Assembly: GCA_030167865.1 (NCBI GenBank)
Contig: JALAGF010003913.1
Span: 1-44,590, forward strand
Source of the DNA: Craspedostauros australis
Taxonomy: Eukaryota
Reading direction: 5' to 3'
DNA: 44,590 nt
The position numbers and the translations under genes were made by a program. This document shows positions 14,963 to 39,972 of this stretch, one piece after another (the stretch's first letter is position 1; each line of letters begins with the position of its first letter). The notes under the pieces are model-generated. The model was not told where the DNA came from. It was given only the letters and a program-made list of their open reading frames with translations, and searched no databases.

Positions 14963-17900
14963 CTATTTGTTCCAGAAGCTCAGAACTTCGTTCAAAGGAA
15001 GCTCGCCGGTACCCTTCACGAATTCGTGCCCAGTTCCATGCCCCATGCGCTGCCTACCAGGTGTACCGAAAGAGAGCTCATCGTCGGCAGCACGGTGAAT
15101 GTCGTTCGCCATCCGGATAATGTCGGCCTGCTGTTTGGCCTGTTCATTCTGAATGCGCTGTTCCTCTGCACGCCGTTGTTGCTCTGCACGCCGTTGTTGC
15201 TCTGCACGCCGCTGTTGCTCCTGCTGTTCTTGTTGCAGTCGGATTTGCTCTTGCTGGAGCTGAAGCTGCATCTGCTGCTGTCGTGCTTGCTCGAGCAGCT
15301 GCTGTTGGGTATCATCGTTGCTGGACTGTACGAACTCCTTCGTTACCTTCAGGACAGCACCTTGACCGCTTGCGCCGCCAAAACTAGAGGCAGACGTTCC
15401 GCCGCTTGCGTCGGTTGCACCTGCCTGTCCCTGTCCCTGTCCTCGTCTTGTTTTTGGCATCCGTTGCAAGTTGCGACGGTGCTCTCTGCCACCCGCCAAG
15501 CTCGTTGATATCCCCTCGCGGACGTTGTCGGCTTGATTCTTGACTGGATTGGAAAATTGCATGGCCTTCTGGTTTGCTGCTTGCCCTGCGTTGGAGTTTG
15601 GCACGGTGGCAGCCACAGCCCCTGCAGCAACTGCCGCGTTGTTCGCACCAAACAGACCAGATCCGGGGAAGTCCATTCCAACACCACAGAACAAAGGAGG
15701 ATTGGTTGTCATGGTCATATTCGTGCTACCTCCCTGCGTTGACACCATGGCGGAGTTGAAGGATTCCGAAAGGGAATCAGAAGCAACAGAGGTCGGTCTT
15801 GAACTGCCGACAACGACCTTGCCTTGACTTGAGGTCGTCACTGATGTCGACGTTGTCACTGATCCGGTCGTGCCCGTCGAAGCCAACGCAGTGACTGCCG
15901 CAGCTCGCGCACGTGCTCGTTGGGCGGACCTCCCTCCTGTGCCTGACAGCGGACCACGCGGATTGGTCTTCGCTGCTGTCAAGTGCACAGAACTCACGCT
16001 CGAGCTTCGAGATGATGCACGTGACAGTGTACTCATGGAGCCAGTCTTGCTTTGGTGTGACATGACGGGTGCAGACCCGCCATTCGGCGGGACGCCAGCT
16101 GGATCTGGCACCTGGACAGGAGTTTTGCGTCGCTGACCATCTGGCTCCAACGTGATGCGCTTCTGTTGCATTCGCTGCGATGTTCCTGATCTTGATGCCT
16201 GTTTCAATGATCGCGTGGTATTGCTGCTGCTTGTTGGCTTCCACGGGATCGATTGTGGCGAGTTATCGCGTGACGGTGGTCCAGGCAGGATGCCACTTCT
16301 GATGTTGCCATTGACGGCGCCCCGGCTTGGTGATCGGCCTTTGCCTTGACCTCGTTGACGGTGGCGCACTGGGATCTTGGGTGACGTGGATCTCGGTGCT
16401 GGCCTCGCCTTGAATTCTGGGGACGGTGATGAACTCTTTTGTTTCATCGCACCGTGTCGGTCCGGGCTCGTTCGGGGTGGAGGCGACGTTCGGATCTTGA
16501 CCAAATTGTTGATTCTCACCGGGATTGTTGGTGGAGAGGAGAGTTTTGGCGCTGGACGTGCCCGAAACGGCTTGACCTCTTCTTCCGTATCCTTCTTGGA
16601 AAATATTTGGCGCTCAGGCGACAATCGGGTCTTCTCAGGCTCCATCTTTCTCACAGGAATGGTCGGGACGGAGAAGTTTGGAAGCGGTCTCGCCTTGAAC
16701 TTTCTTGCAACCTGCGTTGGACGATTCGCAGCTTCGACCGACAGCCGACTTGTCCGCAAAGACGAGTTGAACTTGAACGGTGCAGGCATTGTCACCCGCC
16801 GGTGTCTGTCCTCGAGACTTCCAACACCCTCACCGCTTCGTCTATCTCTGCGCATACTGCCTGTGTTGATTTCGACGTTCGAGAAATCAGGCATTGGACG
16901 TGCTCGAAATTGTGGAATCGGTCGTTGAATTGGCGTCTTCTTCTCAGATTGTCGCACATCCGTGAGGAAAGTGAACGGCTGCGGCGTCGTCAGCTGCTTC
17001 CTTCCCGCATTCGGTGGTCCCTTGTATGTGGCACGGTTCGTTGCCGGGGGGCCTGCCGCGAAATTTGGCATGGGACGCGCACGGAACTGGAAGCCTTCCT
17101 CTTGATTCTCGCCGGCGTCCGTGCTGCGCGAGTGGTGCAGGCGACTGTCGGTTCGTAGATTGAATGGCTGTGGCGTTGTGACTCGCCGTTTTTCGATTGC
17201 CGGCAACGGCGCAGGATTGGTCTCATGCATTCGGACTGGTCTTGCCCGGAATGGTTTCGAATTGAGCTGCTCCATGATCTGCTTTTCCCGCTCGGCCCTG
17301 CTCAGCGGCAGAACTCGCTTGTGAATTTCGTGAAACTTGGGTGCGTGCGGCACCGTCGTCGTCATTGCGCGATCTGAGTGTTCTACTCCCGAATCCGTTC
17401 GGAGGATCTGTTGCCACGAGGGTGTTTCGCCGCCCATCTGCGAGCCGGTCGGTGTGGACGATTTCTTCTCGCCGTATCTCGCGCTCGTTGCGAAGCTTGG
17501 GGCTTGTGGGATCGTCATTCTCATTCGCCCCGATGGTGAAGCTGGGCGCCCGTCCCTCAATCCTCTTCTCAGGATGTCTGTGCTGCTTGCAAGCGACAGC
17601 TCATCAGTTTTAGTCGCTTGGCGTTTGCGTTCTCGTGGCGGCCCGAAGCGTCGTTCCGTCGCAAAGCTCGGCCCGACGGGGATCGTCGGAGTTGGCTTCA
17701 CTGGCGGGGCCTTGAAGCCCAGCACGAGGTTCTTGTTGTGCCCGATCTTCATCTTCCTGGGAGAGACTCGACGATTCTTCTGTTCGATCTTTTCCTTGAG
17801 CTTGGCGATCCTCTCCTGCTCCTTGCGGTCCAGCTCTTCGCGCTTCTTCTTGGCGCGGTCGAGTGCGTCCTTCATTTCCTTCTTTGTTTTTGCGTTCTTT

Positions 17901-20900
17901 TGCTGACGGCGTGCGATGCGGGCATCGAGTCGTTTGCGCTCCTCTGCTCTCTTCTTCTTTTGCAGATCAATTCTGGCGCGCACACGGTCGTTCACGCCGC
18001 CATCGCGTTGGGCCCGAGACGGACTGTGCTGCCCATCATCTCGTTGCTCCACAGTCTGCCCCTTTTGTGTGCTTGAGACTGTTCCAACGAGTATGCGGCT
18101 TGGTACGGAACTGGGCGCGTTCGCTGGGCTAGTACCTTTCTCGTTTTTGTCACGGTTTGCGTCACGTTTCGCGTGCAACCCATCTACTTGGATGTCACTC
18201 GTTTCTGGGGGCTGCGCTTGAGCTTGTGATTGTCCTTGTCCTTGAGTTTGTGCCTCCGCCTTTGCGTGAACAGCTGAGTTCCCGTCTGCTGCGGCGCCAT
18301 TAGATTTCATGCCTTGCACAGCTTGGCTGGATTCGACGGACGTCAGTGAGGAGAGTTGCGTTCCTGCGGCGACTGCTGCAGATGACCGATCTTCATCGGT
18401 ACGACGACTCGCTTCGATCATTGGGGTGTTGTTCGTTTTGGTTCTGGTCTTGTCCAGCTTTGTTGCGCGATTTGTGATTGTGGTTGTTACAGTTGTTGTT
18501 GTGTTTGAGTTCACATGCGCAGTTGAATTTGCAACCGCGTTTGATGTTGTCATGGACCTCCCAGCCGTCTGCCTCGAATGAGGACTCGGGGACCCTGCCC
18601 TTGATGATACCGGCGACGATGATGCTGATGCTGTTGGAGATTGCTGTTTATCCTTCGCATTGCTCGACGCGGTCCCACGCAACAGCCTGCTTGGAACCTG
18701 CGAAGATCGTGGAGACGCGGAACGTTTTCGTTCGTCGTTTGGTGAGGGAGGACGATTCGGAGATCCACGTTTCGCCTGGCTGGACGCAGTCCCGCGAAGT
18801 AATCGGCTCGATACCGCGGTTCTCATGGAGGACGTGACCGTGTTGGATGCTGCTGCCTTCGTCTCCCTTGACGTCTTTGTGGACCTCTTCGTGGAAGTTT
18901 TGGCTTGTTGTGACGACACACGGTGTTGTCGACTCTGCCGCGATGATGAACCGCCGTCCCCAGATCGCCGACTGCGATGAGCTTGATTTTGATGCCCTGT
19001 GGATGAAGCTGTCCGTGGTTGGGACAAACGACTTGACACGGCTGTGCGTGTTGATGTGTTGCCACCTCGGCTGCCGATTGCGGAAGTGTTGGTCGTGCTG
19101 CCTTGCGATCGCGCTTGCGACTGCAATTGGCTGGATGCTGTGTCTCCTCTGGATTGCGCCACCAAGGCAACGGCAGCTGGTTTCGCTGATGCCGATGTTG
19201 ATGCCGCAACGAGATTCTGGGTCGTGTTTTCAATTGCAGTTCCACCCGCTGCCGTGGCGTACTCCGCCCGTGATGCTCTCTGGATGTTTTGGTCGGAGTA
19301 TTCCTTCTGCCCATCCAGCCGCTCCTCGTTGCTCGATGTTTGTTGATGTTGCTGCTGTGCTTGCTGCGACAGCGTGGTTGTGACAGATGCGACAGCATTC
19401 ATCGAAGTTTGATGTGAGGTCGTCACCGACGTTGCATTCGATACATGCTGTGTGGAAAGTTGCTGGTTCGATGAGATCGGCAATGGGGCATCAACGTCCA
19501 TTTCGGAGATGATGGTTGAATCGGCCGCCAGTTCCATGTACGAATTGCCATCCGAGGGTGACGCTTCGACATTGCCTCGGACCACGGTGGTCGACGCAGA
19601 CGTCGGTCGTTTCCGCTGCGGCGCGGTCGTAGTGCTGATCATAGTAGATGCAGTGCTGATGCCTCCGACACTCGCAGCTGATCTCGTTTGGCGAATCTGC
19701 TTTTGCTGCATCGTGCGTCTCTGTGTGGTCTGCGTGCGCTTGGACTGCTGACTAGCAGATGACGATCGGCCCTGTTGCGATGAGCCTGGTTTCTGCCCGA
19801 TGCGCATTCCACCAACGGACTTGGTCAACGACTTGACATCCTTCTTCGTTGCCTTGCGGCGTTGGTTTTTCTTGGACGTCTCCTCTGGCTCGAGCTTGGG
19901 CTGAGCTTGAGGCTTGGATTGTTGTTGCGGCGGCGGCGGTTGGTCTTCTTCGGACGGTGGGTCGTTGCGCAATGACGTTGGTTGTTGATACTCCTGCTCC
20001 GGAGGATCGGGACCATCGGCTCCACCCTGGAACGGCGAGAAAGTCGCCAAGCGTTGCGGCGCATGCTCCTTCGGATAGATCTTCTTGGCATCATCCGGGT
20101 TGTCGTCAGGGATTGGACGACGGGTACCTTTGCGTGGTGAGGCTGCCGCATCTGTCGCCGTAGTTGATTTCGCGTTTTGTGCATCAGCTTGCGTCGTATC
20201 AGTGCTTCCCCATTGCGATACTGCATCAGACAAGGACAATTGCTTGTTCGCCGTGTTTTGCGCGGGAGATTCTGATTGTTCAGTCGCTTGATTTGTAGCA
20301 TTGCCGTTGGCGTCGGTATTGGTATTGTTGGTGTTGCGCGTGGCTCCATTTGGACCATCTGTGATGGCTGCGATTACAGTTGTTGTCTTTGTCGTTGCGC
20401 CCTTTGTCGATTTTGCTTGGGACTTTGACGAGCCGCTCATCGTTGTTGTCGTTGTGGTTTTGGCGCGAGCAGTGGTTGCCCCCGTTGACGTTGATTTCGA
20501 GTGTGATGACCCGCGCCCCTTGGAGGGAGTCTTGCTGCGCGCATCAGACGATGTGACGCTTGTCCCATTCTTGACGGAAGGTGGCGCGGGAACCGGCGCT
20601 GGACTCTTTCGACCACCGGCCGAGGATGTTGGACTGGTGGCCCTTGCCCTGCTGGATGCGGTGCCTCGCAAGAGCCGGCTGGTGGATGAAGTGGACGCAG
20701 CGCCAGAAGATGGCTCTGTTGGCGACGAAGGGCGAGATCGGAGTGGTGACGTCTGTTTGGCCTGGCTCGATGCCGTGCCTCGGAGAAGTCTGCTGCTGGA
20801 AGTGAAGTTGGAAGGAGGAGAGCTCCGCTTCGATTTGGACGGCTTCGACGTGGTCTGCGCTGGTTTTGGTTGTGGTTTGCGAACAACGCCGCGGGCCGTG

Positions 20901-22852
20901 GGCTTGCTGGTGTCGACTGCTGCAACTGCCGCAACCTTTTGATCTGCGATTTTGCTGGCGCTGGTCTTGGTGGCAGCGCGGGCACTCGTGCGTTTGGATG
21001 TCGTGCTTGCTTTTGGTGGTTGCGATTCCATCGATGTCGATCCGATGGTTTCCATGGAAACGGATTCGTTCTGAATGTTGGAATTGCCCAGGGTGCTTGT
21101 GGCGCTGGTGACGGCCACTATCTCCGTGATTGGTGGGCCGCTGTTGCGATCATCCACATCATCGTGGTACTCGTCCATTTTCTGGCGATGCATCTCGAGC
21201 GGTCCATAGTCACGCGATCGAGTCTCGGTGATGGTCTGCTGCAGCTCGAGTTGCGTTTGGTGCGCCTGTTGTTGTTGCTGAACATCGTTTTGACGCCCTG
21301 CTATCGCCCCTGCGCTTGCTGTATCCGTGGCGACTGCGGCGGTGGTGCTGGTGTTGGTAGCGAGGTTTCTTTCCTGTGCCTCCTGATCGAGCTGCCGCTG
21401 CAGGTTGACTGTGGTGGTGCGTTTTGCAGAGGCCGTGATCCTTGTGTTGTTGATGTGAGATGGCTTGATGCTCGCTGGCGTGGCCCCTTCCATCGCCAAG
21501 CGTTTGACCTGCGAATCGGTGAGGCCAGCGGATGGATTTGGCTGGTGCTGCAAGGTGGGACTCGTGATGTCAGACATCGTGGGAGAAGCGAAGGCTATGT
21601 CGGAATGGTAGTGAAACAAGTGATTGTTCTCGCTCTCGAAGCCTCCGGGAGTGGCGTGCAGTTGGTGGTGCGATTGTTGTTGCGATTGCTGGTGATGTGA
21701 TGCGATCGGCTGAAGGCTATCCATGAGATTGTTTCGCAGCTGCGAGTCGGATTCGTTGGATAGTATCCGATAGAAGATGGCGTCGTCATCATCATCTTCC
21801 TCAAATTGCATCTGCTGCTGTGATCCCGAAACCGTGGGAACTGCTCTGGGCTGTTGTTGCTGTTGTTGTTGTTGTTGTTGTTGCTGGCGTTGCTGTTGTT
21901 CCTGGAACTGGAGCTGCTGTTGAATCAGGTGTTGAATCTGGGCATCGTCCTCTTCCACAAGCATGGGAAGTTCGTTGCCGTCGTCGCCGTCGCCGCTTTC
22001 ACCAAACAGCATTGTGTGCTGCTCTGACTGTTCCTGGTCTTGGAGATGGTGATGGTGAGCATCCATCTGAGCATCCATCCGAGCAGCGGCATGTTGATCG
22101 GCATGAACAAGCTCTTCGGCGGCAGGTTGCGACGATGTGGCCTCCTCCTGGTTCAATCCCAGAGCCATGACGTTCTGCTGAAAGGTGTGCTCCGCCTCTG
22201 CCAAGAAGCCCTTGAGGGAATCTGGCACGTAATCCTCTTCATCTTCGTCTTCGTCGTCCATAATTTGATGGATGCCATCGGCATTGTTGCCGGACGTCTG
22301 GGTCGCCTGATGGTCTGGATGCGCGGATACTTGCGCGTTGCGGGCACCATCCGCCATGATGAGCTCTTCGTATCCGACGTGATGAGGGGCGTCGGCTGCT
22401 GGAGCCACGGTATCCACAACGTTCACAACGGTCTGTTCGTGGAAGACGGTCTGCTCTTCCACGACGTGCTCTTCCACGACGTGCTCCTCCACGACGTGCT
22501 CCTCCACAGCGTGTTCTTCCATAGCGTGCTCTTCCACGACGTAGTCCTCAACCAGAACAGGTATGGGTTGGGAATGGTGCTGTCCCAGCTGGTAGGTGTC
22601 GTCCACAGCGTCATCGACAACGTGACTGGCATCACCGTAGCGACCATGGTCGACGTGCGCATCAAGTCCGTGTTGCTGCATGAGCACATCGAGACCGCCC
22701 GCATCGACAGGATGAGGTGGAGAAGCTGTCATGGAATCTACCCTTCGGATCTCGTCCGTCTCCACTTCCAGCGCTCTTTCCACATCCGCAAACATGTCCT
22801 TCCACGAATCTGGGATGGCGTCATCATCGTCGAAGTCATTCGTGTCCGCCAT
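14963..22852 (-). CDS. Very large (2629 aa) low-complexity protein with C-terminal TPX2-like repeats; probable microtubule-associated protein
   Basis: Single 7.9-kb ORF; the first ATG is at 22852 (the track start at 22963 is GTG). The N-terminus is acidic/Q-rich and the middle S/T/R-rich. A coiled coil is followed by TxPxPFxF and FRARP/FKARP motifs (TTPQPFNLRT, FRARPMPNF, LTTPQPFTFLT, FRARPMPDF, TMPAPFKF, FKARPLPNF, FRARPAP, FKARPAP) typical of TPX2-family proteins. Confidence 0.8.
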   Translation of the reverse strand: MADTNDFDDDDAIPDSWKDMFADVERALEVETDEIRRVDSMTASPPHPVDAGGLDVLMQQHGLDAHVDHGRYGDASHVVDDAVDDTYQLGQHHSQPIPVLVEDYVVEEHAMEEHAVEEHVVEEHVVEEHVVEEQTVFHEQTVVNVVDTVAPAADAPHHVGYEELIMADGARNAQVSAHPDHQATQTSGNNADGIHQIMDDEDEDEEDYVPDSLKGFLAEAEHTFQQNVMALGLNQEEATSSQPAAEELVHADQHAAARMDAQMDAHHHHLQDQEQSEQHTMLFGESGDGDDGNELPMLVEEDDAQIQHLIQQQLQFQEQQQRQQQQQQQQQQQQPRAVPTVSGSQQQMQFEEDDDDDAIFYRILSNESDSQLRNNLMDSLQPIASHHQQSQQQSHHQLHATPGGFESENNHLFHYHSDIAFASPTMSDITSPTLQHQPNPSAGLTDSQVKRLAMEGATPASIKPSHINNTRITASAKRTTTVNLQRQLDQEAQERNLATNTSTTAAVATDTASAGAIAGRQNDVQQQQQAHQTQLELQQTITETRSRDYGPLEMHRQKMDEYHDDVDDRNSGPPITEIVAVTSATSTLGNSNIQNESVSMETIGSTSMESQPPKASTTSKRTSARAATKTSASKIADQKVAAVAAVDTSKPTARGVVRKPQPKPAQTTSKPSKSKRSSPPSNFTSSSRLLRGTASSQAKQTSPLRSRPSSPTEPSSGAASTSSTSRLLRGTASSRARATSPTSSAGGRKSPAPVPAPPSVKNGTSVTSSDARSKTPSKGRGSSHSKSTSTGATTARAKTTTTTTMSGSSKSQAKSTKGATTKTTTVIAAITDGPNGATRNTNNTNTDANGNATNQATEQSESPAQNTANKQLSLSDAVSQWGSTDTTQADAQNAKSTTATDAAASPRKGTRRPIPDDNPDDAKKIYPKEHAPQRLATFSPFQGGADGPDPPEQEYQQPTSLRNDPPSEEDQPPPPQQQSKPQAQPKLEPEETSKKNQRRKATKKDVKSLTKSVGGMRIGQKPGSSQQGRSSSASQQSKRTQTTQRRTMQQKQIRQTRSAASVGGISTASTMISTTTAPQRKRPTSASTTVVRGNVEASPSDGNSYMELAADSTIISEMDVDAPLPISSNQQLSTQHVSNATSVTTSHQTSMNAVASVTTTLSQQAQQQHQQTSSNEERLDGQKEYSDQNIQRASRAEYATAAGGTAIENTTQNLVAASTSASAKPAAVALVAQSRGDTASSQLQSQARSQGSTTNTSAIGSRGGNTSTRTAVSSRLSQPRTASSTGHQNQAHRSRRSGDGGSSSRQSRQHRVSSQQAKTSTKRSTKTSRETKAAASNTVTSSMRTAVSSRLLRGTASSQAKRGSPNRPPSPNDERKRSASPRSSQVPSRLLRGTASSNAKDKQQSPTASASSSPVSSRAGSPSPHSRQTAGRSMTTSNAVANSTAHVNSNTTTTVTTTITNRATKLDKTRTKTNNTPMIEASRRTDEDRSSAAVAAGTQLSSLTSVESSQAVQGMKSNGAAADGNSAVHAKAEAQTQGQGQSQAQAQPPETSDIQVDGLHAKRDANRDKNEKGTSPANAPSSVPSRILVGTVSSTQKGQTVEQRDDGQHSPSRAQRDGGVNDRVRARIDLQKKKRAEERKRLDARIARRQQKNAKTKKEMKDALDRAKKKREELDRKEQERIAKLKEKIEQKNRRVSPRKMKIGHNKNLVLGFKAPPVKPTPTIPVGPSFATERRFGPPRERKRQATKTDELSLASSTDILRRGLRDGRPASPSGRMRMTIPQAPSFATSARYGEKKSSTPTGSQMGGETPSWQQILRTDSGVEHSDRAMTTTVPHAPKFHEIHKRVLPLSRAEREKQIMEQLNSKPFRARPVRMHETNPAPLPAIEKRRVTTPQPFNLRTDSRLHHSRSTDAGENQEEGFQFRARPMPNFAAGPPATNRATYKGPPNAGRKQLTTPQPFTFLTDVRQSEKKTPIQRPIPQFRARPMPDFSNVEINTGSMRRDRRSGEGVGSLEDRHRRVTMPAPFKFNSSLRTSRLSVEAANRPTQVARKFKARPLPNFSVPTIPVRKMEPEKTRLSPERQIFSKKDTEEEVKPFRARPAPKLSSPPTIPVRINNLVKIRTSPPPRTSPDRHGAMKQKSSSPSPEFKARPAPRSTSPKIPVRHRQRGQGKGRSPSRGAVNGNIRSGILPGPPSRDNSPQSIPWKPTSSSNTTRSLKQASRSGTSQRMQQKRITLEPDGQRRKTPVQVPDPAGVPPNGGSAPVMSHQSKTGSMSTLSRASSRSSSVSSVHLTAAKTNPRGPLSGTGGRSAQRARARAAAVTALASTGTTGSVTTSTSVTTSSQGKVVVGSSRPTSVASDSLSESFNSAMVSTQGGSTNMTMTTNPPLFCGVGMDFPGSGLFGANNAAVAAGAVAATVPNSNAGQAANQKAMQFSNPVKNQADNVREGISTSLAGGREHRRNLQRMPKTRRGQGQGQAGATDASGGTSASSFGGASGQGAVLKVTKEFVQSSNDDTQQQLLEQARQQQMQLQLQQEQIRLQQEQQEQQRRAEQQRRAEQQRRAEEQRIQNEQAKQQADIIRMANDIHRAADDELSFGTPGRQRMGHGTGHEFVKGTGELPLNEVLSFWNK
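15160..15216. repeat. 18-bp coding tandem repeat (EQQRRA x3)
   Basis: ctctgcacgccgttgttg-type units repeated three times inside the TPX2-like ORF. Confidence 0.8.
21850..21900. repeat. (TGT/TGC)n trinucleotide repeat encoding polyglutamine
   Basis: A run of tgt/tgc on + reads CAA/CAG on - and encodes QQQRQQQQQQQQQQQQ. Confidence 0.85.
22453..22545. repeat. 15-bp coding tandem repeat (VEEHV/A x about 6)
   Basis: ctcttccacgacgtg-type units translate as VVEEHAMEEHAVEEHVVEEHVVEEHVVEEQ. Confidence 0.85.
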
Positions 22853-24143: not shown

Positions 24144-24899
24144 TCAGGCTTCAAGCGTCACCGTGAATGTCAGAGTGTTGTCGTCGCGCCCTCTCTCAAG
24201 AACATCCTTTCTCATCACGAACTCTTTCCATCCCCGACCGCCTCTGCCTTTGGTGTAACTGCGCCATCCCGATACCCTCTTGATGTCAAGCTTCTTGATC
24301 TCAATCGTATGCTTCACGGAGCACCTGTCGTTCGATTTCCACGAGACCCAATCTGGACACAGGTATATTGCGATGTACCCTTCTTTATCGTCGCCCATGC
24401 TCTTGTCCTCGCCTCTTGGATAGAGCCTCAAGTACCATTTCAGACCATGGAAATCAAAGGTCCCAGAGAACAGGGATTGGATGGGTGCATGGGCCAGTCT
24501 TGAGAAGTTGTGGAAGTGCACATCGACAACTTCCTTCAGCACACAATCGGTTGAAGACTTGCCAACATGCACAACATGTCTCGTTATCTTCTTCGGCAAA
24601 GGTTTCGTGCAGTCTGCCTTTGATGGCGACACAACATTTTTGCTCGTCTTCGCGGATGGAGAAGGAGGAATGGTATTCATACTTGTCGTCGTGCTTGTTG
24701 CTCGTTTCCATTTTATGCGGGTTCGTCTCTGGTTGATCTTTGTGCAACATGGTTGGCGTAGATTCGTAACGTTGTGGTCGTGCTTCGCCATGTCGCTCGC
24801 AGTCCACGATCGTGTCATTAACGACGTGCTACGCATTGGTGCTACTATTCGTACATGTGCACAACATCGTGTTTTCCTACGGTGCTGACACAAGTCCAT
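24144..24899 (-). CDS. MATH (TRAF-like) domain-only protein, copy 1; start uncertain
   Basis: MATH signature FHNFSRL...FDFHGLKWYLRLYPRG...GYIAIYL...GRGWKEFVMRKDVL...DNTLTFTVTLEA followed by TGA. Several in-frame ATGs (24899 to 24680) are possible starts. Confidence 0.8.
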   Translation of the reverse strand: MDLCQHRRKTRCCAHVRIVAPMRSTSLMTRSWTASDMAKHDHNVTNLRQPCCTKINQRRTRIKWKRATSTTTSMNTIPPSPSAKTSKNVVSPSKADCTKPLPKKITRHVVHVGKSSTDCVLKEVVDVHFHNFSRLAHAPIQSLFSGTFDFHGLKWYLRLYPRGEDKSMGDDKEGYIAIYLCPDWVSWKSNDRCSVKHTIEIKKLDIKRVSGWRSYTKGRGGRGWKEFVMRKDVLERGRDDNTLTFTVTLEA

Positions 24900-25668
24900 G
24901 AAGCCGTGGCGACCCACTCGGCTCTACTTGTCTTTGCCTCTCACAGCGTGATGTTCTCCGCCTTTGTGAGATCGGGCCTTCGCATAACATGCACCAGCGT
25001 GTACGGGAAATGGAGACGACGATCGATGAAGGCCAGAGGGAAACGGAGACGCCGCGTTGTGAGCATGGTGGGACCCGTTCGTTGATTTAGTGGTGGAACA
25101 TACGTACCAAGACCCGCACGTACGCACGAGCAATAGAAGTTGGTTGCCGCATCTGTATTGGTACAGCAGGATTGAGATACATGCATACTCCGCTGTACTC
25201 GTACCGGTTCGGTCAAAGCATCTACTCGTCGCGAGGTGACATTCTCAACCGTGGACAGCACATGTGAAGCGTACAGCCGCCGGAGGATGGCACACGCCAT
25301 GATTCCAGCGGAGAGACACACGGCAGGTTCGATGGTGCTGAACAAGACTCACCCGTTGATGCACTGGCAATCACGTGGTCGGACTGCACAGAGAGCGCAA
25401 CGTGTGCGTATAAAGCTATGCTCAATGGTAGACTATCGCTACGTTTAGATTGAGTTGCTACCATCATCCTCGTGTGGCTGTCCGACGGCTGAACCGATGG
25501 CGAGACCTGCCGGAGGGGTCCTTGCCTCATGGCCACTTGGCCAGCATCTCTCTTGCCCATGCTGCTATTCTCTTAGTTGCGTGCACAGCGTTGCTTTGGG
25601 TGAACACGTCGAACATTCCTTCATCTTCCACGGCTATTTTGCGACGTACGCACATACCTTCTGCGTGG

Positions 25669-26301
25669 TCAGGCTTCGAGCGTCACAGTGAAAGTGACAG
25701 TGTCGTTTTCACGTCCATTGTCAAGGACATTGCTTCTCTTGACGAACTCGGCGGATCCCCATCCATCTCCTCCCTTGGCGTTTTTCTGGTTGGAACTGAG
25801 TGCATGATAGCCGAAGAAATTCATGCTCGGCCACAAATCGCCCAGTCCTTGACGGGTAGCGTAAGTGCGCCATCCGGGCACCAACATTGCATCCATCTTC
25901 TTGATCTCGAATATAGACTTGATGGTGCGCGTGTCCCGAAAGAACCACGAAGAAGTGTCGAGAAGCAGGTATGCTGCAACGTGTGCGCTACCTTCATCGC
26001 GTGTGGTCTTGCGGATACCTCTCGGAAACAGCTTCAGACGCCACTTCAAGCCTTGGAAATGAAAAGAGTCCGACAAGAGAGATTCACTTGGGGCATGGGG
26101 TAGCTTGGAAAAGTTGTTGACGTGGATGTCGACAACCTTCTTGGTGGCGTACTTGAGGGGTCTCGAGGACCCCGAAGATTCCCCGACATGCACAACTTCG
26201 TCTTGCAGATTATTCGATGAAAGCTTCGCATTGTTCCGATGCTCTCCTTCCAATCGGCGCACTTCGGCGAACAGAATCAGGGTTGAAATCATACCACCCA
26301 T
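25669..26301 (-). CDS. MATH domain-only protein, copy 2 (tandem paralog)
   Basis: VVHVGESS...VDIHVNNFSKLPHAP...FHFQGLKWRLKLFPRG...HVAAYL...GWGSAEFVKRSNVL...NDTVTFTVTLEA followed by TGA. It is colinear with copy 1 and stops at the same position. An acceptor-like CTTCCTCCAG just upstream hints at a further 5' exon. Confidence 0.8.
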   Translation of the reverse strand: MGGMISTLILFAEVRRLEGEHRNNAKLSSNNLQDEVVHVGESSGSSRPLKYATKKVVDIHVNNFSKLPHAPSESLLSDSFHFQGLKWRLKLFPRGIRKTTRDEGSAHVAAYLLLDTSSWFFRDTRTIKSIFEIKKMDAMLVPGWRTYATRQGLGDLWPSMNFFGYHALSSNQKNAKGGDGWGSAEFVKRSNVLDNGRENDTVTFTVTLEA

Positions 26302-30114: not shown

Positions 30115-32438
30115 ATGAGCGCAGCTGATGGGTCGCGAGACTCTTCCGACTACTCCAACCTGTCGGAACAGCAGGAGGTCATCATCTCGGTCCTCACCGT
30201 CATCTCCAGCACTCTCTCAATATTTGGGTACGTCGCACCTTGCTCGGACCGATACCTGTGTTGGTACGCTGCTTGCGAGCACAACACTTCATCCGTGATG
30301 TTCATGTACGCTTTCAGGATGCATGGAACGGCGCCAAACACATCAGCATGTGACAGTTGATGGAGATTGGAATTGGGATTGCGATTCTTCGGTCCCTGCC
30401 ATCCACGATGCGATGTCCTGAACGCGAACCTGCAGAGCCCGTTCGGGTGGTTTCGTTTTCCTCTTGGCAACAAACTCTGTGTGATGCTGCTCCGGACAGA
30501 GTAGGCCGCGCGGCATCCTGACAATGGCGAAAACTCACATCACCATCACTGTTTATCATCCTCCACCCCTCCTTCGCGTTGCCTCCACTTCACTTGGCTC
30601 GACTCGACTCTTTATTGGCATCCACCTCCGCAACCATCTCCACTCACTTTGCTTCCAAATACATTGCCGCCGACCGATCCGCTGGCATGCCAACATGACA
30701 CGGTATCCTGCCATGCGCTATCTCATACCACGTCACGCCACACCATGCTTCATGACTGCAACCTGCTTCATGCAACAACGACAACAACAACACACACATG
30801 TACTCTTTGAATGGTGCAATCGGAACCATGCGGGCAATCAACTACTGTACCATACTCCTACGTACATCCTTTTCATCTGTGTGACCTCGCAGCTCGTCAA
30901 TGATCATAAATCTCGCATGGACCAACCCACGACAGACGCCCTACCGGCGGATTCTGCTGGGGCTGTCGATATCTGATGTGATGGCCTCTATCATGTTGGC
31001 AGCATCGCCGTTCTTGGTGCCGAAGTATCCAGGTTCCAGGGTTTGGGCCATCGGCAACGACACCACATGCTCGGTGCATGGATTCTTTGCGCAGGGATCC
31101 TTCAGCACGGTGTGGTACAGCGGATACCTCAGCCTGTACTACCTCATGACGGTGCGGTACGGGATAAAGAACGCGGACTTCGCTCGGAAGTACGAGATCT
31201 TCATCCATATCTCGGCTGTTTCCTACAGTTGGATAGCGTCCATCATCGGCATCTCGATAGGTCTCTTCAGCGAAAACGCATTGGGGGTCGGGTGCTGGGT
31301 TGCGGAATATCCGGAGAACTGCGAAGAGGACGACAGCTGCGTCGGTCAGTTCTACGGCTGGATTTTCGCCGGCGTCCCGACCTTCCTTTGGTTTGTTTTC
31401 ATCAGCGTCTCCAACTTCATGATCTACACGCACGTTCGCAGCACGATCAACAAGCCCAGCAACACGATGACCGACGAGAAGAAGAAACGCATCGCGCAGC
31501 TCGCGAATCAGGGATTCTTCTACGTCTTCTGCTTCTTCATGAGCTACGGCTGGGCGTTCGTTGTCAAGGTGGCGGAGAGCTTGAACTACAGCAAGGAGAA
31601 CGAGGCGGACATCTTCTTCCTCCTCGTGCTGCAATCGCTTTTCTTGCCGGCGCAGGGATTCATGAACTTGCTCGTCTACACGCGTCCCAACTACCTGCGA
31701 GTGCGTGACGAATACCCGCAGGAAACGCGTTGGTGGGCGGTGCGCAAATCATGGTTCGGCTCCATCGCACCCATACGAACCACAGATGTGGATGGCGCGA
31801 GCTTACCTCCCGTCAAGAACAAGAACAAGGGCAAGTTCATGATGGGGATGCGGTCGAGTCGCAAAAAGAGCAGCTCGAAACGCAACCAAAACAGTGGCGA
31901 TATCGAAAAGTACAGCGAAAGCAAAACGGCCGCGGCCATCACCGCTGCGGCGGCAAAGCAGCAGCAGCATCAGGAACGACGGCAGAAGGTCGCGGAAGGA
32001 TTCTCGCAGGAGATTGCCAAGGTGGAAACAGCCTTGGGATTCGGCAGCGGTAGCCATACGCAGACGCACCTGCCGTCTCACCACCGCACCCAAACCAACA
32101 CGAACTCCCATACGATGCTGCACACCGACTCCAGCAATGGCGGACAGCGCAATTCGCAGGTGCAGATACATGCCGAGCCGGTATTCATGCATCCCAGCGC
32201 GAGGCCAGTCCCCAGGCCGATGCACGCCCCAAAGGGGGCGGTGCGTGGGATCTTGCGGCAGTCGAGGGACCATTCACGGCCTCGCGTGCAAGAGGAGCTG
32301 ACCCGCGAAGATTCGATGGAACGGTTCCAGTCGACGGACGATGGCTTCGTCAGCGATGACGAGAATGGTGGGGTCGATGACGGCTGGGGTGGGCGGAATG
32401 ATCGCAACCGCAATAGAAACGGCAGAGGGAGGAGATGA
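30115..32438 (+). CDS. Seven-transmembrane GPCR-like receptor (cAMP-receptor/GPR157/Git3-like); 2 exons (30115-30227, 30893-32438), 552 aa
   Basis: Exon 1 supplies TM1 (VIISVLTVISSTLSIFG). Intron 30228-30892 (GTACGT...CGCAG, phase 2) joins it to SSMIIN...PYRRILLGLSISD...GNDTTCSVHGFF...CWV...LFLPAQGFMNLLVYTRP, followed by a long disordered C-tail. Confidence 0.88.
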
Positions 32439-33810: not shown

Positions 33811-34137
33811 CTACTGCGCCTCCAAAATCTTGCGGATCTTGCCGAGAAGCTGCTCTCGCTCCTTCGGCGTCGTCAGGTATCGTTCTCCCTCGGACATGCG
33901 GGTCTTCTTGGAATGCAACAGCATCTTCTTGGGCTTGCCCGTCGCATCGTCCAGCACATCAGGATGCTTCAGCACGACCTCAAAGTTCCCGGTAGGTCGA
34001 GGGTCGCGCTTGCCCTGGATCTTCACGTCCAGGCCTTGCTCTTGCATCCATTTCCGGGCCTCGATGTAGTAGCGCTGGAAGCCTCATGCTCCGCAGTACT
34101 GGATCGTGATGGATGGCTTCGTCTGGTTGGCGCCCAT
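33811..34137 (-). CDS. Selenoprotein W-like (Rdx family) protein, 108 aa, with Sec encoded by in-frame TGA at 34086-34084
   Basis: The ATG at 34137 gives MGANQTKPSITIQYCGA-TGA-GFQRYYIEARKWMQEQGLDVKIQGKRDPRPTGNFEVVLK...LLHSKK...LLGKIRKILEAQ*. I.YCxxUG, TGNFEV and LHSKK are hallmark SelW/Rdx motifs. The ORF track reports only the 78-aa part after the TGA. Confidence 0.9.
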
Positions 34138-34197: not shown

Positions 34198-35024
34198 ACT
34201 TTCGCACTTGCCTTTTGCTGCTTCGCCTTGTGGACAGGGGGTGGTTGTGATTGTGGCTGTGCTGTTTGGAATACGACAGCAGACCCGATCCCTTGCGGAC
34301 GATCAACACCGACTGGTCGAAGGAGGGTCCCGATTCATGTGCGCTCGTGAACTTTGCGTTCACTCCGCTTCCGGTCAACCCAGAACACTCACTTTTCTGT
34401 CTGTCGTGTCGTGTCGCATCTTGTGCTCTTGATTGACTTCGAGAACTTTGACATTTCCCTGTTTGTCTTGTCACGACTGCTTTGTGCACGAGCACGAATC
34501 GTGGAAAACGGACTCACTCGATCAATCGCAGATGTCATACACACGACTTGTGTACAATACCGTGATATGACGTCAGAATGATAGACGTGTCTTGGAGAGA
34601 CAACACAAATGACATTTAGTTACGAAAGGTATGATTGGATTCGACCAATGTTCGTGTCCACAATGATCCCGGACAGGATTCAATACAAGAGAGAGTCCTT
34701 TTGAGTTCATCGTTCAATGGCACTATTCGAACGAACATGTTCGTGTTCGATAAAGGTACCAGGGAGTGTTCATTGTGGGGAGTCCTTTGTGTGGTGTATT
34801 CATCTTGCTCTTTGTTCCAACCATAGTCTACACACAACTATGTCCGGACACACACGTTGTGCATTTGCTACCATCCTCACCCACAATCAGGAGGCAACCT
34901 CGACTCCTGGCGTGTGTACACAACACGTTCGTAAATGTACTAGGACACGTTAACACATAATCATTCCTCTGTGGAACGCAGCAAACTCTGCGTTGAACGG
35001 GAGGCCCACCTATCCACCTGCATT

Positions 35025-37010
35025 CTATTCGGGGAACAAATTCGGCTGTCCTGCGGTTTGCCATATGTTGCTGTTGTTGCCATCCCGCGAGTTGTGGATG
35101 CCTGACAGCCCGTGCTCCTTCAGGATGCGAATAGTGTCCTTCAGTCGCACTTCCTCCTCATCTTGTTCGTCGGTGTAAATGGATTGCAAGCTCACGGAGA
35201 TGTGGCTTGCCAGCGCCATGAGGATCTGCACATCGCGGTCCAGAAAGCCATGTTGCAAAGTATCGACGGATGCTTTGCGGAATCCTTGCGCTGCTTCGTC
35301 CGCCGCTGCGGCCTGTCCGCCAGAGATCTTGTTCATCGCCTGAATCACAGCGATCGTGCGTCCTTGTCCGTCCAGCACAGGCACGACGGCCATGTTCTTG
35401 ACGTGGGAAGGAATGACGGTCATGATCGAGCGCGTATCGTCGTCATCTTCATCACCATTGTTGCTGTCATGCCTGTCGTTGATGGAGGGGTCGGTGGCGA
35501 AATCAGGTTCGGCATGCACGTCGTAAATATTCCAGGGACGTCCGGTCATGGCGGCTCGAGACACGATGCCGCGGCCCAGCGGGATCATCAGAGCGGAGTT
35601 GGGGGATTGGGAAGACCCTGGCACCATCATCGTGGCGCCTTCGAGCAGGCGGATGTTGCTGGAGGGGTCGGAACCATCGATGCGCGATGTGATGGAATGC
35701 AACGTATCCATGACTCTTCCGGTTGCTGAGCTGAAACCCATGTCGTTGTCTGTGGATGCCGCGGATGATGAGGGCGACGACGACGACGATGATGCGGTCG
35801 ATGAGTGCATCACAGATGGCTTAATCTTGGGCAGCACGTAGTACATGGCATACAGGTGCGTCCCCGTCGCTGTGGGACGCAAGCTGCGCTTGTCGATAGT
35901 CGTCGACGCAGATCCAAAGATGGAGGTATGCCACCAATACAGAACATCGAATAGCGACGAGGATGATGCAGCAGTCGGTTTGGCTTTTGCCTTTGTTTTC
36001 CTTGGTTGCAGTGCAGGCGGTGGCTGAACGCGAAGGTACAGGCACGTTGATTCTGCTCCCACCAACGTCTTTGCTTCCGTCACGACGTCACGGAAGAGCT
36101 TCTCCAGGTGGGCATCGCGCTTCTTGCGCTCCGTCTTGTGCGGATCCAGGAACATGAGGGGGAACATGCCGATGATGCATCCGATGACAATGCCCACGCC
36201 GCAACCGAGCTGTCCCGTCCATCGCACGGAACGCAGCTGACGTTGGGCATCGGTGAGCTTGGGCACGGGGAGCTTGAGGACCGTGGTGCAGAAGTCTTCA
36301 ATGACGGTGCCCAGCATGATCCCAGCCACGTCGCTGATGATGTTGCCGATGGCGGCTGCGCAGAGCGTCGAGATTCCCAGCATGACACCTAGCGACGTGT
36401 CGATGGCGTCACCGGCAATGATGAGGATGGAATTGTCCATGATACCGAATCCGATGAACGGTATGGCCTGTGCGAGGGCCACCAGCTTGAGCTGGTCTCT
36501 CGTTGGCTCGGGAACGTGCGGAGTGGCGCCTGCGGCCACCTTGGTCGATGCTGATGATGATGCCGTGGTCGATAGATGACGCCGCTGCGTTCGTCTCGTA
36601 TGCTGCTTGCAACTCCGCTTGCAATGGCGGTGCAATTGCATTGAATCACGCAGTGAATGATTTGCGGCGTTTGTCGTTGCTGTTCGTTTGACGACATTTC
36701 GCATAGCAGAGTTCGTCGCCGACGCCATGGCAAGTTGCATGCCATGTCGAGCGTGCGTTCTACTTGTTGTGGTGGCATTGCCACGAGAAACGCATGCGGT
36801 GAAATCATTCATGCGCATGCCTCGCGTCGCCGACTGTTGGAGCTTCGTTGTACGATTATTGATGCACGTCAGCAGACTGTATTGACGAAGTTGGCGAGGG
36901 CTATGCTGTGGATGCTGATGATGCCACTGCCTCTGCAATTGAATTCGTTGCTGCAACTTCCACAGGAGCTGGCGGCGATGCATGCCCGCAAGCGTTGCGA
37001 TGGTGTGCAT
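35025..37010 (-). CDS. TMEM65-domain + GAF-domain fusion protein with mitochondrial-type presequence
   Basis: The N-terminus is Arg/Ser/Thr-rich and acid-poor. The TMEM65 signature is AIPFIGFGIMDNSILIIAGDAIDTSLGVMLGISTLCAAAIGNIISDVAGI...GIVIGCIIGMFPL. The GAF part is EAKTLVGAESTCLYL...IPLGRGIVSRAAMTGRPWNIYDVHAEPDF...KNMAVVPVLDGQGRTIAVIQAMNK...FLDRDVQILMALASHISVSL. Confidence 0.88.
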   Translation of the reverse strand: MHTIATLAGMHRRQLLWKLQQRIQLQRQWHHQHPQHSPRQLRQYSLLTCINNRTTKLQQSATRGMRMNDFTACVSRGNATTTSRTHARHGMQLAMASATNSAMRNVVKRTATTNAANHSLRDSMQLHRHCKRSCKQHTRRTQRRHLSTTASSSASTKVAAGATPHVPEPTRDQLKLVALAQAIPFIGFGIMDNSILIIAGDAIDTSLGVMLGISTLCAAAIGNIISDVAGIMLGTVIEDFCTTVLKLPVPKLTDAQRQLRSVRWTGQLGCGVGIVIGCIIGMFPLMFLDPHKTERKKRDAHLEKLFRDVVTEAKTLVGAESTCLYLRVQPPPALQPRKTKAKAKPTAASSSSLFDVLYWWHTSIFGSASTTIDKRSLRPTATGTHLYAMYYVLPKIKPSVMHSSTASSSSSSPSSSAASTDNDMGFSSATGRVMDTLHSITSRIDGSDPSSNIRLLEGATMMVPGSSQSPNSALMIPLGRGIVSRAAMTGRPWNIYDVHAEPDFATDPSINDRHDSNNGDEDDDDTRSIMTVIPSHVKNMAVVPVLDGQGRTIAVIQAMNKISGGQAAAADEAAQGFRKASVDTLQHGFLDRDVQILMALASHISVSLQSIYTDEQDEEEVRLKDTIRILKEHGLSGIHNSRDGNNSNIWQTAGQPNLFPE

Positions 37011-38037: not shown

Positions 38038-39972
38038 CTACAAATCCTTGCAGATGCGACGGCGTTTGGTGGCGCGGGCCTCTTCGATCTTCGAGATGTT
38101 GGCCTGCTTGTTCTTCTTGTGGACCTCTTCGAAAGAGAACTTGTTCTCCCCAACAGCATTCTTCCATGCCTTCTTTCCGTCGATGTCCATGCGGCTGGTC
38201 AGGATGTAGGGTTCTCCTTCCTCAGGCGTAACCTCGACCTTCACTTCTCCTTCCTTCGCAACGATCTCCGTCTCGGACATGACGTTGTAGAGGATGGCAC
38301 CCTTGCCGGCTGTGATCTTTGGTGCCACGCAGTTCACCAGGATCGCCCCGTCGGCCGACAGCTCCTTGGTCTCGACCTTGCAGACCAAGGAGTCCTTGAC
38401 GGTGCCCTTGCCAATCTTGCTGATGAACATGTAGGAGTGCGTCAGATCGACCTCGCCTTCCTTGCTCGTGGTTGCCTCGTCCGAGATGCTCAGGAACTTC
38501 TTCAGCAGAGCGCACTCCGTGTTGGAATCCTCCAGGAGGAGAAGCGAGTTCTTGGAGTAGAGCTTGAGCTGTCCGTAATCCCACCAGCACGCGCTCTTTC
38601 CAACATTGACGGCTCCGAACAAGCCCATCTTCTCGCCCATGTCGAAGCCCTTCTTGAACGCTGCCATGCGCTTGTAGTGCGGTCCGGATACGGTCTCCTC
38701 GATGTCCTTCTGCTTCATCAGCCGCATGTAGTCGGCCTCGCTGAGGGTGAGCGGCATCCAGAAATCCGGATCAGTGTCAAGCTTGGCAGTCTTCTCAGTG
38801 AGCTCCTTGTCATACTCGGCGCACAACGCGGTCAGAATGGCAGCACTGACACTGAAGCTACCCAGGGATGGTCCCACCTGCCCGATCTCACCCAAGGACC
38901 CCAGCATCTGCACTGCTGTGGGATGATCCACCTTCTCGACCTGGGCAGCCTCGGCGATGGTGTTGTCGTCCTTGGCCTTCATGACGGCGATGACACCGTA
39001 CTTGTCCAGGCCTTGCTCCGTCCACTCTTCAGCGGTCGGTGCAGTGTCACCAAGCAGGGTGCACATGATGTCGATGTGGTGGGTTGGGGTGTACGCGAAA
39101 GTTTCGACGGATGGCAGGAAGACCTGGTCGCCCCAGTACACGCTCATGCGTCCCTTGCGAGATGGAGCGTAGATCCCCGTCTGTCGCACAACGGCCTCCA
39201 GCACTGTCAACGGTTCACCGTTTGGTCCCAGGAATGGAAGTTTCTGTTTGTATTCGCACGCATTATATGCAATTGCATCGAATTGCGTGGTGAAGAGGAT
39301 CGAATGATGGAATGGATGGAAGAGTGAGTCAAATGAAGAAGAAGAAGATGATGAAGAGAGAAGGAAGGGGGCAAGGGAGGGCGGATCGATGGGCGGGTGT
39401 ACTCATATGGCAGATCTGTCCCCAGGGCTCCAAGAGGCACCCAAACCTCCCTCCGATCAAAATCGACATCTCACACATGGTGCACCCTGAAGCAAACGCC
39501 AAACGCCCAACACCAATCGCAACATGACACAATGCGACAAAGTAGAGGCACCTACAACTCCTGGTTTGTTGTTGTTCTCGCTAGCAGGCAGTGGCGCCAA
39601 CCGGGTGCCTTTGCCAGCCGTGTGGTACAGCGCTGCGCTGATGGATCCATCCGAGAGCTTGGCGACCAGATCCAGACCATCGAGCTTCTCCTTTGCGTAC
39701 TTGACGGCCTTCTGCCAAGCGTAGAGAGTCCCGAGGCCGTTGCCGGCTCCCGATCCACCCCAGTCCTCGCTGACGGCAATGACCAACGGGAAGGCCCCGG
39801 CCTTGGCATCGTCGCCTTCCTTCTTGGGGCCCAGCTTGGACATCCAGAAGTCCGCCTGGTGGTCATCGGTGGTGCAGATGATGGTGACATCGTAGACATT
39901 CTCTGGCTTGGTCATGGCCGTCACGGCGGCCTCCAGCCGGGTGTTGATCTCTGCTTGGTCTGGGGCGGACAT
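38038..39972 (-). CDS. Uncharacterised sugar-phosphate nucleotidyltransferase-like protein; 2 exons (39972-39556, 39243-38038), 540 aa
   Basis: Intron 39555-39244 (GTAGGT...AACAG, phase 0) joins NNNKPGV to KLPF...LTVLEAVV. Motifs GAGNGLGTL, HTAGKGTRLAP and VYWGDQVF resemble nucleotide-sugar pyrophosphorylases, and the C-terminus has a hexapeptide-like beta region. Codon usage is strongly C/G-ending. Confidence 0.75.

Follow-up and report, generated by a model that had tools for sequence, protein, structure and literature searches.

The window, a 44,590-nucleotide stretch of DNA, encodes on its minus strand a protein in which a TMEM65 membrane domain with a putative, apparently intact ion site runs directly into a GAF domain of the phosphodiesterase (PDE) type. 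The fusion is real, neither a chance join nor a merged gene. Comparison with its relatives suggests that the TMEM65-GAF family probably began as a cyclic nucleotide (cNMP)-gated exchanger, and that this protein belongs to a diatom branch whose GAF domain has been remodelled and is probably not a cNMP sensor. The features that carry this reading are collected in Table 1. Most interesting is that a putatively intact ion site of TMEM65 and a conserved regulatory domain occur together in organisms reported to be without the MCU channel.

Table 1. Features of the TMEM65-GAF gene (positions in the window)
Feature	Positions	Strand	Basis
Whole ORF, TMEM65-GAF fusion	35025..37010	-	661 aa; without stop or frameshift; intron unnecessary
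Leader, aa 1-146, Arg/Ser/Thr-rich, acid-poor, presumed mitochondrial presequence	36573..37010	-	Composition; candidate cleavage motif R144-H-L-S
TMEM65 three-helix membrane domain, aa 181-289, glycine zipper G269-G273-G277-G281	36144..36470	-	PF10507, E 3.6e-41; 48% identity to bat TMEM65; pLDDT 93.7
Presumed ion-site residues D192, D227, G230, E238, with N193 and N223	36297..36437	-	Alignment to animal TMEM65; conservation; modelled dimer axis
Helix aa 290-317, continuous from TM3 to the first helix of the GAF domain, candidate rod for coupling	36060..36143	-	Helix 290-317 in model; conservation 0.64
GAF domain, aa 299-615, PDE/CyaB2-type descent	35166..36116	-	Pfam; PDB sequence hits; Foldseek; structure alignment
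Low-complexity insertion in the strand 1-2 loop, aa 329-378	35877..36026	-	Loop of 55 aa; medians 23 (close relatives) and 3 (distant relatives)
Ser-rich insertion in the strand 2-3 loop, aa 391-472	35595..35840	-	Same loop carries an EF-hand pair in homologue P0247
GRGIVSR, aa 479-485; GIxG of cNMP-binding GAFs replaced by GIVS and a clade-specific Arg	35556..35576	-	Column counts
Lid region, aa 505-537, acidic, unconserved, without D..TG[FY]xT	35400..35498	-	Lid counts; conservation
NK...F...DV form of NKFDE (N560, K561, F589, D593, V594)	35229..35333	-	Sequence and family columns
C-terminal region: acidic stretch, conserved helix (aa 621-638), LFP motif at the end	35031..35174	-	Conservation

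The open reading frame runs for 661 codons from an ATG without a stop, as the initial annotation had described, and its start (M1) is common to the closest homologue (P0002). Both domains score above their cut-offs, PF10507 with 140 bits against a curated 25 and PF01590 (aa 461-608, E 1.4e-8) with 35.8 bits against 22.4. They lie where that annotation had placed them, the TMEM65 domain at about 36500-36150 and the GAF domain directly after it at about 36100-35180. A first protein search returned 178 hits among 7999 candidates, and the 120 homologues among the matches listed that were checked for domains carry both Pfam domains without exception (120/120). Several of these fused homologues are complete proteins derived from MMETSP transcripts; in relatives, then, a single mRNA encodes the fusion, which counters the concern raised at the outset that the two domains might sit on separate transcripts. 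A misreading of two adjoining genes, or of an accidental join, as a single frame could be argued from the fact that no Craspedostauros read or contig bridging both domains was found; the one open frame, the conserved linker helix and the uniformly fused homologues, transcript-derived ones among them, effectively refute it. An 837-nt contig from one read run, RNA only by guess, matches 34928-35760 with 0 differences and 0 gaps, covering the GAF half alone and bridging no domains. A weak in-frame intron candidate of 57 nt lies in the first GAF loop and none in the other three loops; the leader holds several intron candidates at chance level. Rfam gave no match near the gene.

The membrane domain is strongly conserved. 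Its mean top-residue frequency is 0.81, the structure model folds it into three membrane helices, and glycines 269, 273, 277 and 281 of the zipper are invariant in 121 sequences. The 48% identity to bat TMEM65 (240 aa) extends over 132 columns, and this alignment maps human D132, G140, E144, D167, G170, E178 and Q195 onto D192, G200, D204, D227, G230, E238 and Q256. A VIT1/CCC1-like fold, considered as a lead, was not among the matches listed in structure and profile comparisons of the domain; no known fold rose above Z 6.0 and Foldseek gave no match at E 0.001. D132, D167, G170 and E178 are reported as required for TMEM65 activity in human cells (PMC12830682). Their counterparts D192, D227, G230 and E238 are each kept in 119/119 close relatives; among 29 distant fusions the first three are kept in 29/29 and E238 in 25/29. 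These counts derive from 271 sequences, reduced to 160 with a complete first GAF domain and then by 12 cluster mates. The residues of the putative ion site are thus intact by alignment, in keeping with the proposed ion transporter core, and Ca2+/Na+ exchange by the diatom protein would follow by analogy.

A structural model of two chains places these residues together. Modelled as two copies, aa 166-635 reached a score of 0.58, whereas the best of three controls gave 0.01. The score mark is reached by 21/30 solved pairs and 0/23 single chains, and among eukaryotes by 17/29 pairs and 0/30 single chains, with only 1/7 of those without an older solved relative reaching it; the PDB sequence hits included no chain of TMEM65. 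Agreement between runs is 43% of contacts or more, and pLDDT is 55 or higher. The confident interface spans aa 185-291 and thus all membrane helices, with contacts 192-227', 223-192' and 193-223', so that residues 192, 193, 223 and 227 meet across the modelled axis. The model supports a homodimer with aspartates meeting at its axis. Such an interface fits one shared cation site as well as the homodimer reported for animal TMEM65 (PMC13254257), and it supports binding, short of showing it. The model names no confident GAF-GAF contact, an observation of no weight either way.

The N-terminal leader is presequence-like by composition, as had been claimed, with 21 R, 6 K, 2 D and 0 E (27 basic, 2 acidic) in aa 1-165. 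Among the 91 family leaders that begin with Met and comprise at least 40 residues, 76 have a net charge of at least +3 in the first 40 residues, and 0/91 contain a hydrophobic run like that of a signal peptide. The pattern that we take to mark cleavage occurs in 43/90 family leaders versus 1/90 control segments, and here falls at R144. The helical hydrophobic moment of the protein's own N-terminus is low (0.07-0.24 over the first 22 windows). A mitochondrial location is presumed from the leader's composition and the candidate cleavage motif. Because the C-terminus of human TMEM65 is reported to lie in the intermembrane space, the GAF domain would face that compartment, if human topology holds, within reach of cytosolic small molecules.

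The function of the membrane domain could also be read differently, as the movement of Na+/H+, Mn2+ or Fe2+, or as a role outside mitochondria, with Ca2+ beside the point. The long, weakly amphipathic leader would suit this account, as would an apparent mismatch in distribution: all diatoms analysed in one study lack MCU (PMC11085791), yet TMEM65 was reportedly picked out in animals for its MCU-like distribution. The retention of all four residues needed for the Ca2+ phenotype speaks against it, as do the absence of signal-peptide-like runs from the family leaders and the EF-hand pair within the GAF domain of P0247, which scores below the Pfam cut-off and points to Ca2+ in the family. Of the accounts weighed here in which the fusion is genuine, this is by a shade the least probable.

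The C-terminal half is a GAF domain by fold and descent. In an AlphaFold2 model built on an alignment of 121 sequences, mean pLDDT is 65 with cores at 80-95, and the GAF region superimposes on the PDE2A GAF (1mc0) with Z 17.5 and rmsd 2.4 over 147 residues, which counters the possibility that this part is not a GAF fold; the PtsP GAF is tied with it within about 1 Z unit. Foldseek ranks CyaB2, PDE10A, PDE5A and PDE2A at the top. The best PDB sequence hits, CyaB2, PDE5, PDE10 and PDE2, support the PDE-type ancestry proposed initially, and CyaB2 is matched at E 1.6e-50 by a family-wide profile whose consensus contains the full lid. Mean top-residue frequency is 0.64-0.78 over the linker and GAF core and 0.09-0.18 in four loops; with the membrane part included, the cores range from 0.66 to 0.81, so the low-complexity insertions do lie in loops. 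The conservation of the GAF core itself (0.66-0.78) indicates that the domain is under selection. Some JGI homologues are labelled as free methionine-R-sulfoxide reductase; the catalytic Cys of GxCG, presumably the motif of that enzyme, was not found, and column 483 holds V, I, L, A or K in the 119 close relatives. The homologue labels "diguanylate cyclase" and "tRNA-specific adenosine deaminase 1" are unsupported by those proteins' Pfam lists. Beyond the GAF domain, at least four acidic residues occur in 109/121 sequences, followed by a helix (conservation 0.69) and the LFP motif (0.93). Loss of the acidic tail of animal TMEM65 is reported to lower activity (PMC12830682), and the acidic stretch after the GAF domain may stand in for it.

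A key question is whether this GAF domain still binds a cyclic nucleotide. The NKFDE motif marks cNMP-type GAF domains without touching the ligand, supporting fold and binding instead, and in PDE2 GAF-B single alanine changes in any of its residues are reported to abolish cGMP binding (PMC11977230). The diatom protein carries the NK...FxxxD form noted previously, with N560, K561, F589 and D593 followed by V594, so that the motif is incomplete. N, K, F and D are near invariant in the family, and the Glu is Val in 105/119 close relatives by column counts and in 118/139 of the set used for the lid count. The GIxG motif at the start of helix 3 is likewise changed, reading GIVSR. S484 is found in 113/119 and R485 in 117/119 close relatives, versus Gly in 25/29 distant ones.

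A further difference lies in the lid. In cNMP-binding GAF domains helices 3 and 4 close over the ligand, and CyaB2 contacts it through R291, T293, I308, D356 and N359 (PMC4411481). Just before strand 5, alignments of PDE5 and CyaB2, from which the search pattern was derived, read D..TG[FY]xT or D..NGYRT. From 355 proteins, 17 without a membrane match and 140 without a complete first GAF domain were set aside. In the remaining 198, the anchored D..TG[FY]xT motif of helix 4 (CyaB2 D356, N359) is present in 0/139 close relatives, defined by membrane identity of at least 0.6 and, being related sequences, representing about one evolutionary event, versus 18/59 distant ones. A second Fragilariopsis paralogue (P0192) is among the distant fusions with an intact lid; of the rest, 12 have another conserved lid in common and 29 show neither type. 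A looser pattern is matched by 2/119 close sequences (P0026 and P0039), neither of which passes the anchored one. Lid length among the close relatives ranges from 8 to 41 residues, with a conservation of 0.13, and the lid is net negative in 103/121 sequences. In the brown algal and Hondaea fusions the lid segment is absent outright and the helical frame kept, as read by eye from the alignment.

These observations bear directly on the view that the GAF domain still binds cAMP or cGMP, so that cytosolic cNMP in the intermembrane space would switch Ca2+/Na+ exchange directly. Several features are consistent with it: its closest solved relatives are cNMP-type GAF domains (CyaB2, PDE5, PDE10 and PDE2), four of the five motif residues are nearly invariant, the family-wide profile retains a full lid, and a genome search gave 150 phosphodiesterase matches, which are matches and not gene counts. 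In addition, the PDE5 pocket-floor residues V230, I266, Q283 and I285 (taken from PMC11977230) map, by our own indexing of the alignments, to V483, M540, Q557 and M559; position 557 among the 119 close relatives is Q in 59, R in 30 and E in 24. The hydrophobic floor and the retained Q557 could therefore still allow weak cNMP binding. Against this stand the loss of the lid motif, the replacement of the motif Glu by Val and the net-negative lid, which disfavours an anionic ligand. Furthermore, no conserved residue corresponds to the CyaB2 contacts R291, T293, D356 and N359: positions S321 and C323 are variable, and the lid is unalignable. Direct cNMP switching is hence unlikely in this protein. 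The initial annotation had taken the NK..F..D motif as a pointer to cGMP or cAMP binding, a suggestion not supported for this protein, given that the motif is reported to make no ligand contact and that the domain has lost the lid motif, with both GIxG and the Glu changed. The wider proposal of ligand-coupled mitochondrial Ca2+/Na+ handling keeps the support of the architecture, the leader and the TMEM65 site and probably loses cNMP sensing here. On sequence grounds, gating by cNMP is a better reading for the distant members and for the second diatom paralogue than for the present gene.

The named sources of the listed homologues are diatoms (Nitzschia, Seminavis, Cylindrotheca, Fistulifera, Amphora, Mayamaea and Pseudo-nitzschia), and the tree places this protein among the raphid pennates. 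When 50 of the 160 aligned fusions are placed in a tree, rooted for drawing only, it falls in a clade of 21 rows (100/96), and a separate clade of 6 rows (99/96) joins Fragilariopsis P0192 with Amoebophrya. Diatoms as a group therefore possess at least two TMEM65-GAF paralogues. The pair PF10507 and GAF, whose taxonomic range had been proposed for checking, proves widespread in protists. Further fusions come from Perkinsus, Diplonema, Amoebophrya, Platyproteum, Chrysoparadoxa, Fragilariopsis, Ectocarpus, Discosporangium, Hondaea and Cladosiphon, a range that takes in brown algae, a thraustochytrid, alveolates and Diplonema. The Atlas holds four TMEM65+GAF clusters (at 0.95-0.97), all eukaryotic, whose commonest phyla, from few labelled members, are Chlorophyta, Bacillariophyta and Apicomplexa. 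Thirty long or low-scoring proteins were picked from 131 new profile hits, and 27 of them carry both domains. Their add-ons are C2 in six, ankyrin repeats in two, EF-hands in two and PAS in one; one protein is a GAF-phosphodiesterase. With the GAF region as query, no longer fused form (1158-3305 aa) was found among 8000 candidates, which is weak evidence, and a later profile search gave one of 1862 aa. Searches of the organism's own genome for a second TMEM65 (1, 7 and 2 candidates scored) found only this locus, though an intron-split copy could be missed; a GAF family search also matched this locus only, which suggests low sensitivity. A search of the genome for MCU gave no match, its controls being silent as well, and carries no weight. 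Since intact lids occur on several branches, loss of the lid in the diatom clade would be the simplest history.

The proposed mechanism, which we hold to be an even call, is that of a dimeric inner-membrane Ca2+/Na+ exchanger tuned by its GAF domain through a continuous helix, without tight cNMP binding. After removal of the leader, two chains would pair through their three membrane helices each, and D192, N193, N223 and D227 from both would form one central cation site, exchanging Ca2+ for Na+ as proposed for animal TMEM65. The GAF domain, joined to TM3 by the single helix of aa 290-317, could thereby set exchanger activity; we infer that such regulation takes place. It would have descended from a cAMP/cGMP-binding GAF domain still intact in many protist TMEM65s. 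In the diatom branch, remodelling of lid and pocket would have turned it into an allosteric, structural or partner-binding cap, or alternatively into a sensor of another small anion via the new S484-R485 pair. The reported lack of MCU in diatoms, which makes the need for a Ca2+ exporter less obvious, counts against this explanation, and a further weak point is the full-length model's pLDDT of only 65.

The protein might instead not transport ions on its own and serve as a subunit that regulates a diatom exchanger of the NCLX/CCX type, its GAF domain being the docking or control module. For animal TMEM65, debate continues over whether it exchanges ions itself or regulates NCLX (PMC13483046). 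Human TMEM65 has been reported to depend on NCLX (PMC10592617), and the genome contains an NCLX-like gene (G000:C6344) whose sole PDB hits are NCLX chains (E 2e-23). Other papers report activity independent of NCLX, however, and the invariant acidic residues on the axis of the modelled self-dimer are in keeping with a transporter. The matrix hook, an N-terminal element proposed to contact NCLX, is also not clearly present (E 5.2 with an animal profile and 0.005 with a protist one). A purely regulatory role is thus quite improbable, a touch less so than transport of a cation other than Ca2+ or a role outside mitochondria.

All diatoms analysed in the MCU study lack that channel; its authors call the alternative uptake route unknown, and TMEM65 goes unmentioned there (PMC11085791). 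TMEM65-GAF is a candidate for that printed question of how Ca2+ crosses the mitochondrial inner membrane in diatoms. A bolder extension, improbable though slightly less remote than a mere NCLX subunit, holds that TMEM65-GAF proteins could be an old and widespread protist class of second-messenger-gated mitochondrial Ca2+ exchangers: cNMP-gated where the lid is intact, Ca2+-gated through EF-hands or C2, and perhaps light-gated through PAS/LOV. In diatoms without MCU, the remodelled paralogue would then provide a gated, reversible Ca2+ route, uptake included, with its GAF domain reading a ligand other than a cyclic nucleotide.

The connection of TMEM65 with mitochondrial Na+/Ca2+ exchange dates only from 2023-2026, and both its transport activity on its own and its control are disputed. 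A natural series of TMEM65s with sensor domains at the presumed intermembrane-space end shows where regulation can enter, and within diatoms an intact-lid GAF and a remodelled one form a matched pair. The pairing of TMEM65 and GAF domains was already visible in database annotations; new here are the division of the family into intact and remodelled pockets, a second paralogue, the connection with the loss of MCU and a model of the dimer. In a literature search with most subscription journals outside its coverage, no paper on a TMEM65-GAF fusion was found, nor any experiment on a protist TMEM65 or characterisation of the protist fusions compared below.

Like animal TMEM65 (PF10507), the diatom protein has the three-helix domain, the equivalents of D132, D167, G170, E178, G140 and Q195, the glycine zipper, a presequence-like leader and a modelled homodimer. 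Unlike animal TMEM65, it has a GAF domain of about 320 residues and a C-terminal helix in place of the short acidic tail, Asp at the position of E144, no clearly present matrix hook, and a host lineage reported to be without MCU. The MICU1 protein of the MCU channel is an intermembrane-space sensor controlling an inner-membrane Ca2+ path, there as a separate EF-hand subunit; the analogy is functional only, with no homology to TMEM65-GAF.

With the GAF domains of CyaB2, PDE2, PDE5 and PDE10 (1ykd, 1mc0, 3mf0 and 2zmf), the diatom domain shares its fold (Z 15.9-17.5), its best sequence hits, the N-K-F-D residues and the hydrophobic pocket floor. In contrast to them, it is a single GAF on a predicted membrane transporter, without cyclase or phosphodiesterase, and it has no D..TG[FY]xT lid, GIVS and Arg for GIxG, Val for the motif Glu and three long loop insertions. 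PDE5 GAF-B, which is held not to bind cGMP, offers a parallel: alignments show NK..F..D kept and the TG[FY]xT lid absent there as well, although it stands in a tandem pair ahead of a catalytic domain and keeps its Glu. The order TMEM65, helix, GAF and the invariant membrane residues are common to the other protist fusions (Fragilariopsis P0192, Amoebophrya P0243, Perkinsus P0225, Diplonema P0171, Ectocarpus P0308 and Hondaea P0302). These differ from the diatom protein in that some have the full cNMP lid, some carry tandem GAF domains with C2, EF-hand, ankyrin or PAS additions, and some have the lid deleted.

The frame immediately downstream of the TMEM65-GAF gene encodes a candidate selenoprotein of the Rdx family, in which a CxxU motif would be present provided that the in-frame TGA is read as selenocysteine. 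An Rfam scan found no SECIS element. The gene on the upstream side gave no match in a Pfam search; by eye, its glycine-rich N-terminal motifs suggest a possible sugar-phosphate nucleotidyltransferase. The same search returned no match for the 2629-aa ORF, and no connection to TMEM65-GAF was seen for the 7TM-like, MscS, ankyrin-BTB and MATH genes of the window.

Genes surrounding TMEM65-GAF in the window and an NCLX/CCX-like gene elsewhere in the Craspedostauros australis assembly (stretches L017 and L022)
Feature	Location	Strand	Remarks
MscS channel	window 10127-11860	(-)	Pfam search
Ankyrin-BTB protein	window 12566-14380	(-)	Pfam search
2629-aa ORF	window 14963-22852	(-)	strong AT skew in this stretch
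MATH-domain frames	window 24144-26301	(-)	Pfam search
7TM receptor-like protein, weak	window 30900-32438	(+)	Pfam search
Rdx-family selenoprotein candidate, 108 aa	window 33811-34137	(-)	Pfam Rdx, E 1.7e-6; next gene downstream
Upstream gene	window 38038-39972	(-)	apparently two exons
NCLX/CCX-like exchanger gene	L017 1216-1992 and L022 (contig G000:C6344)		E 2e-23 to solved NCLX

Elsewhere in the 66-Mb assembly, the phosphodiesterase family PF00233 accounts for 150 matches spread over many contigs, duplicates among them.

Some homologous fusions carry additional elements. The loop between GAF strands 2 and 3, which is Ser-rich in the window protein, holds an EF-hand pair in homologue P0247 and, by eye, long inserts in P0229, P0227 and P0240; an EF-hand match also occurs in P0228. 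Homologue P0202 has the architecture TMEM65-GAF-GAF-C2-PAS, and its PAS part contains the sequence GRNCRFLQ, a motif typical of LOV photosensors. This protein is possibly chimeric, since it is known from a single contig.

In a tree of 50 of the 160 aligned fusions, P0171 from Diplonema papillatum clusters with the tandem-GAF forms, adjoining Perkinsus and Platyproteum, a placement that might reflect transfer, contamination or old paralogy. A second diatom paralogue, P0192 from Fragilariopsis cylindrus, possesses both the NKFDE motif of cNMP-type GAFs and the full ligand-covering lid known from PDE5 and CyaB2, and is the stronger candidate for true cNMP gating.
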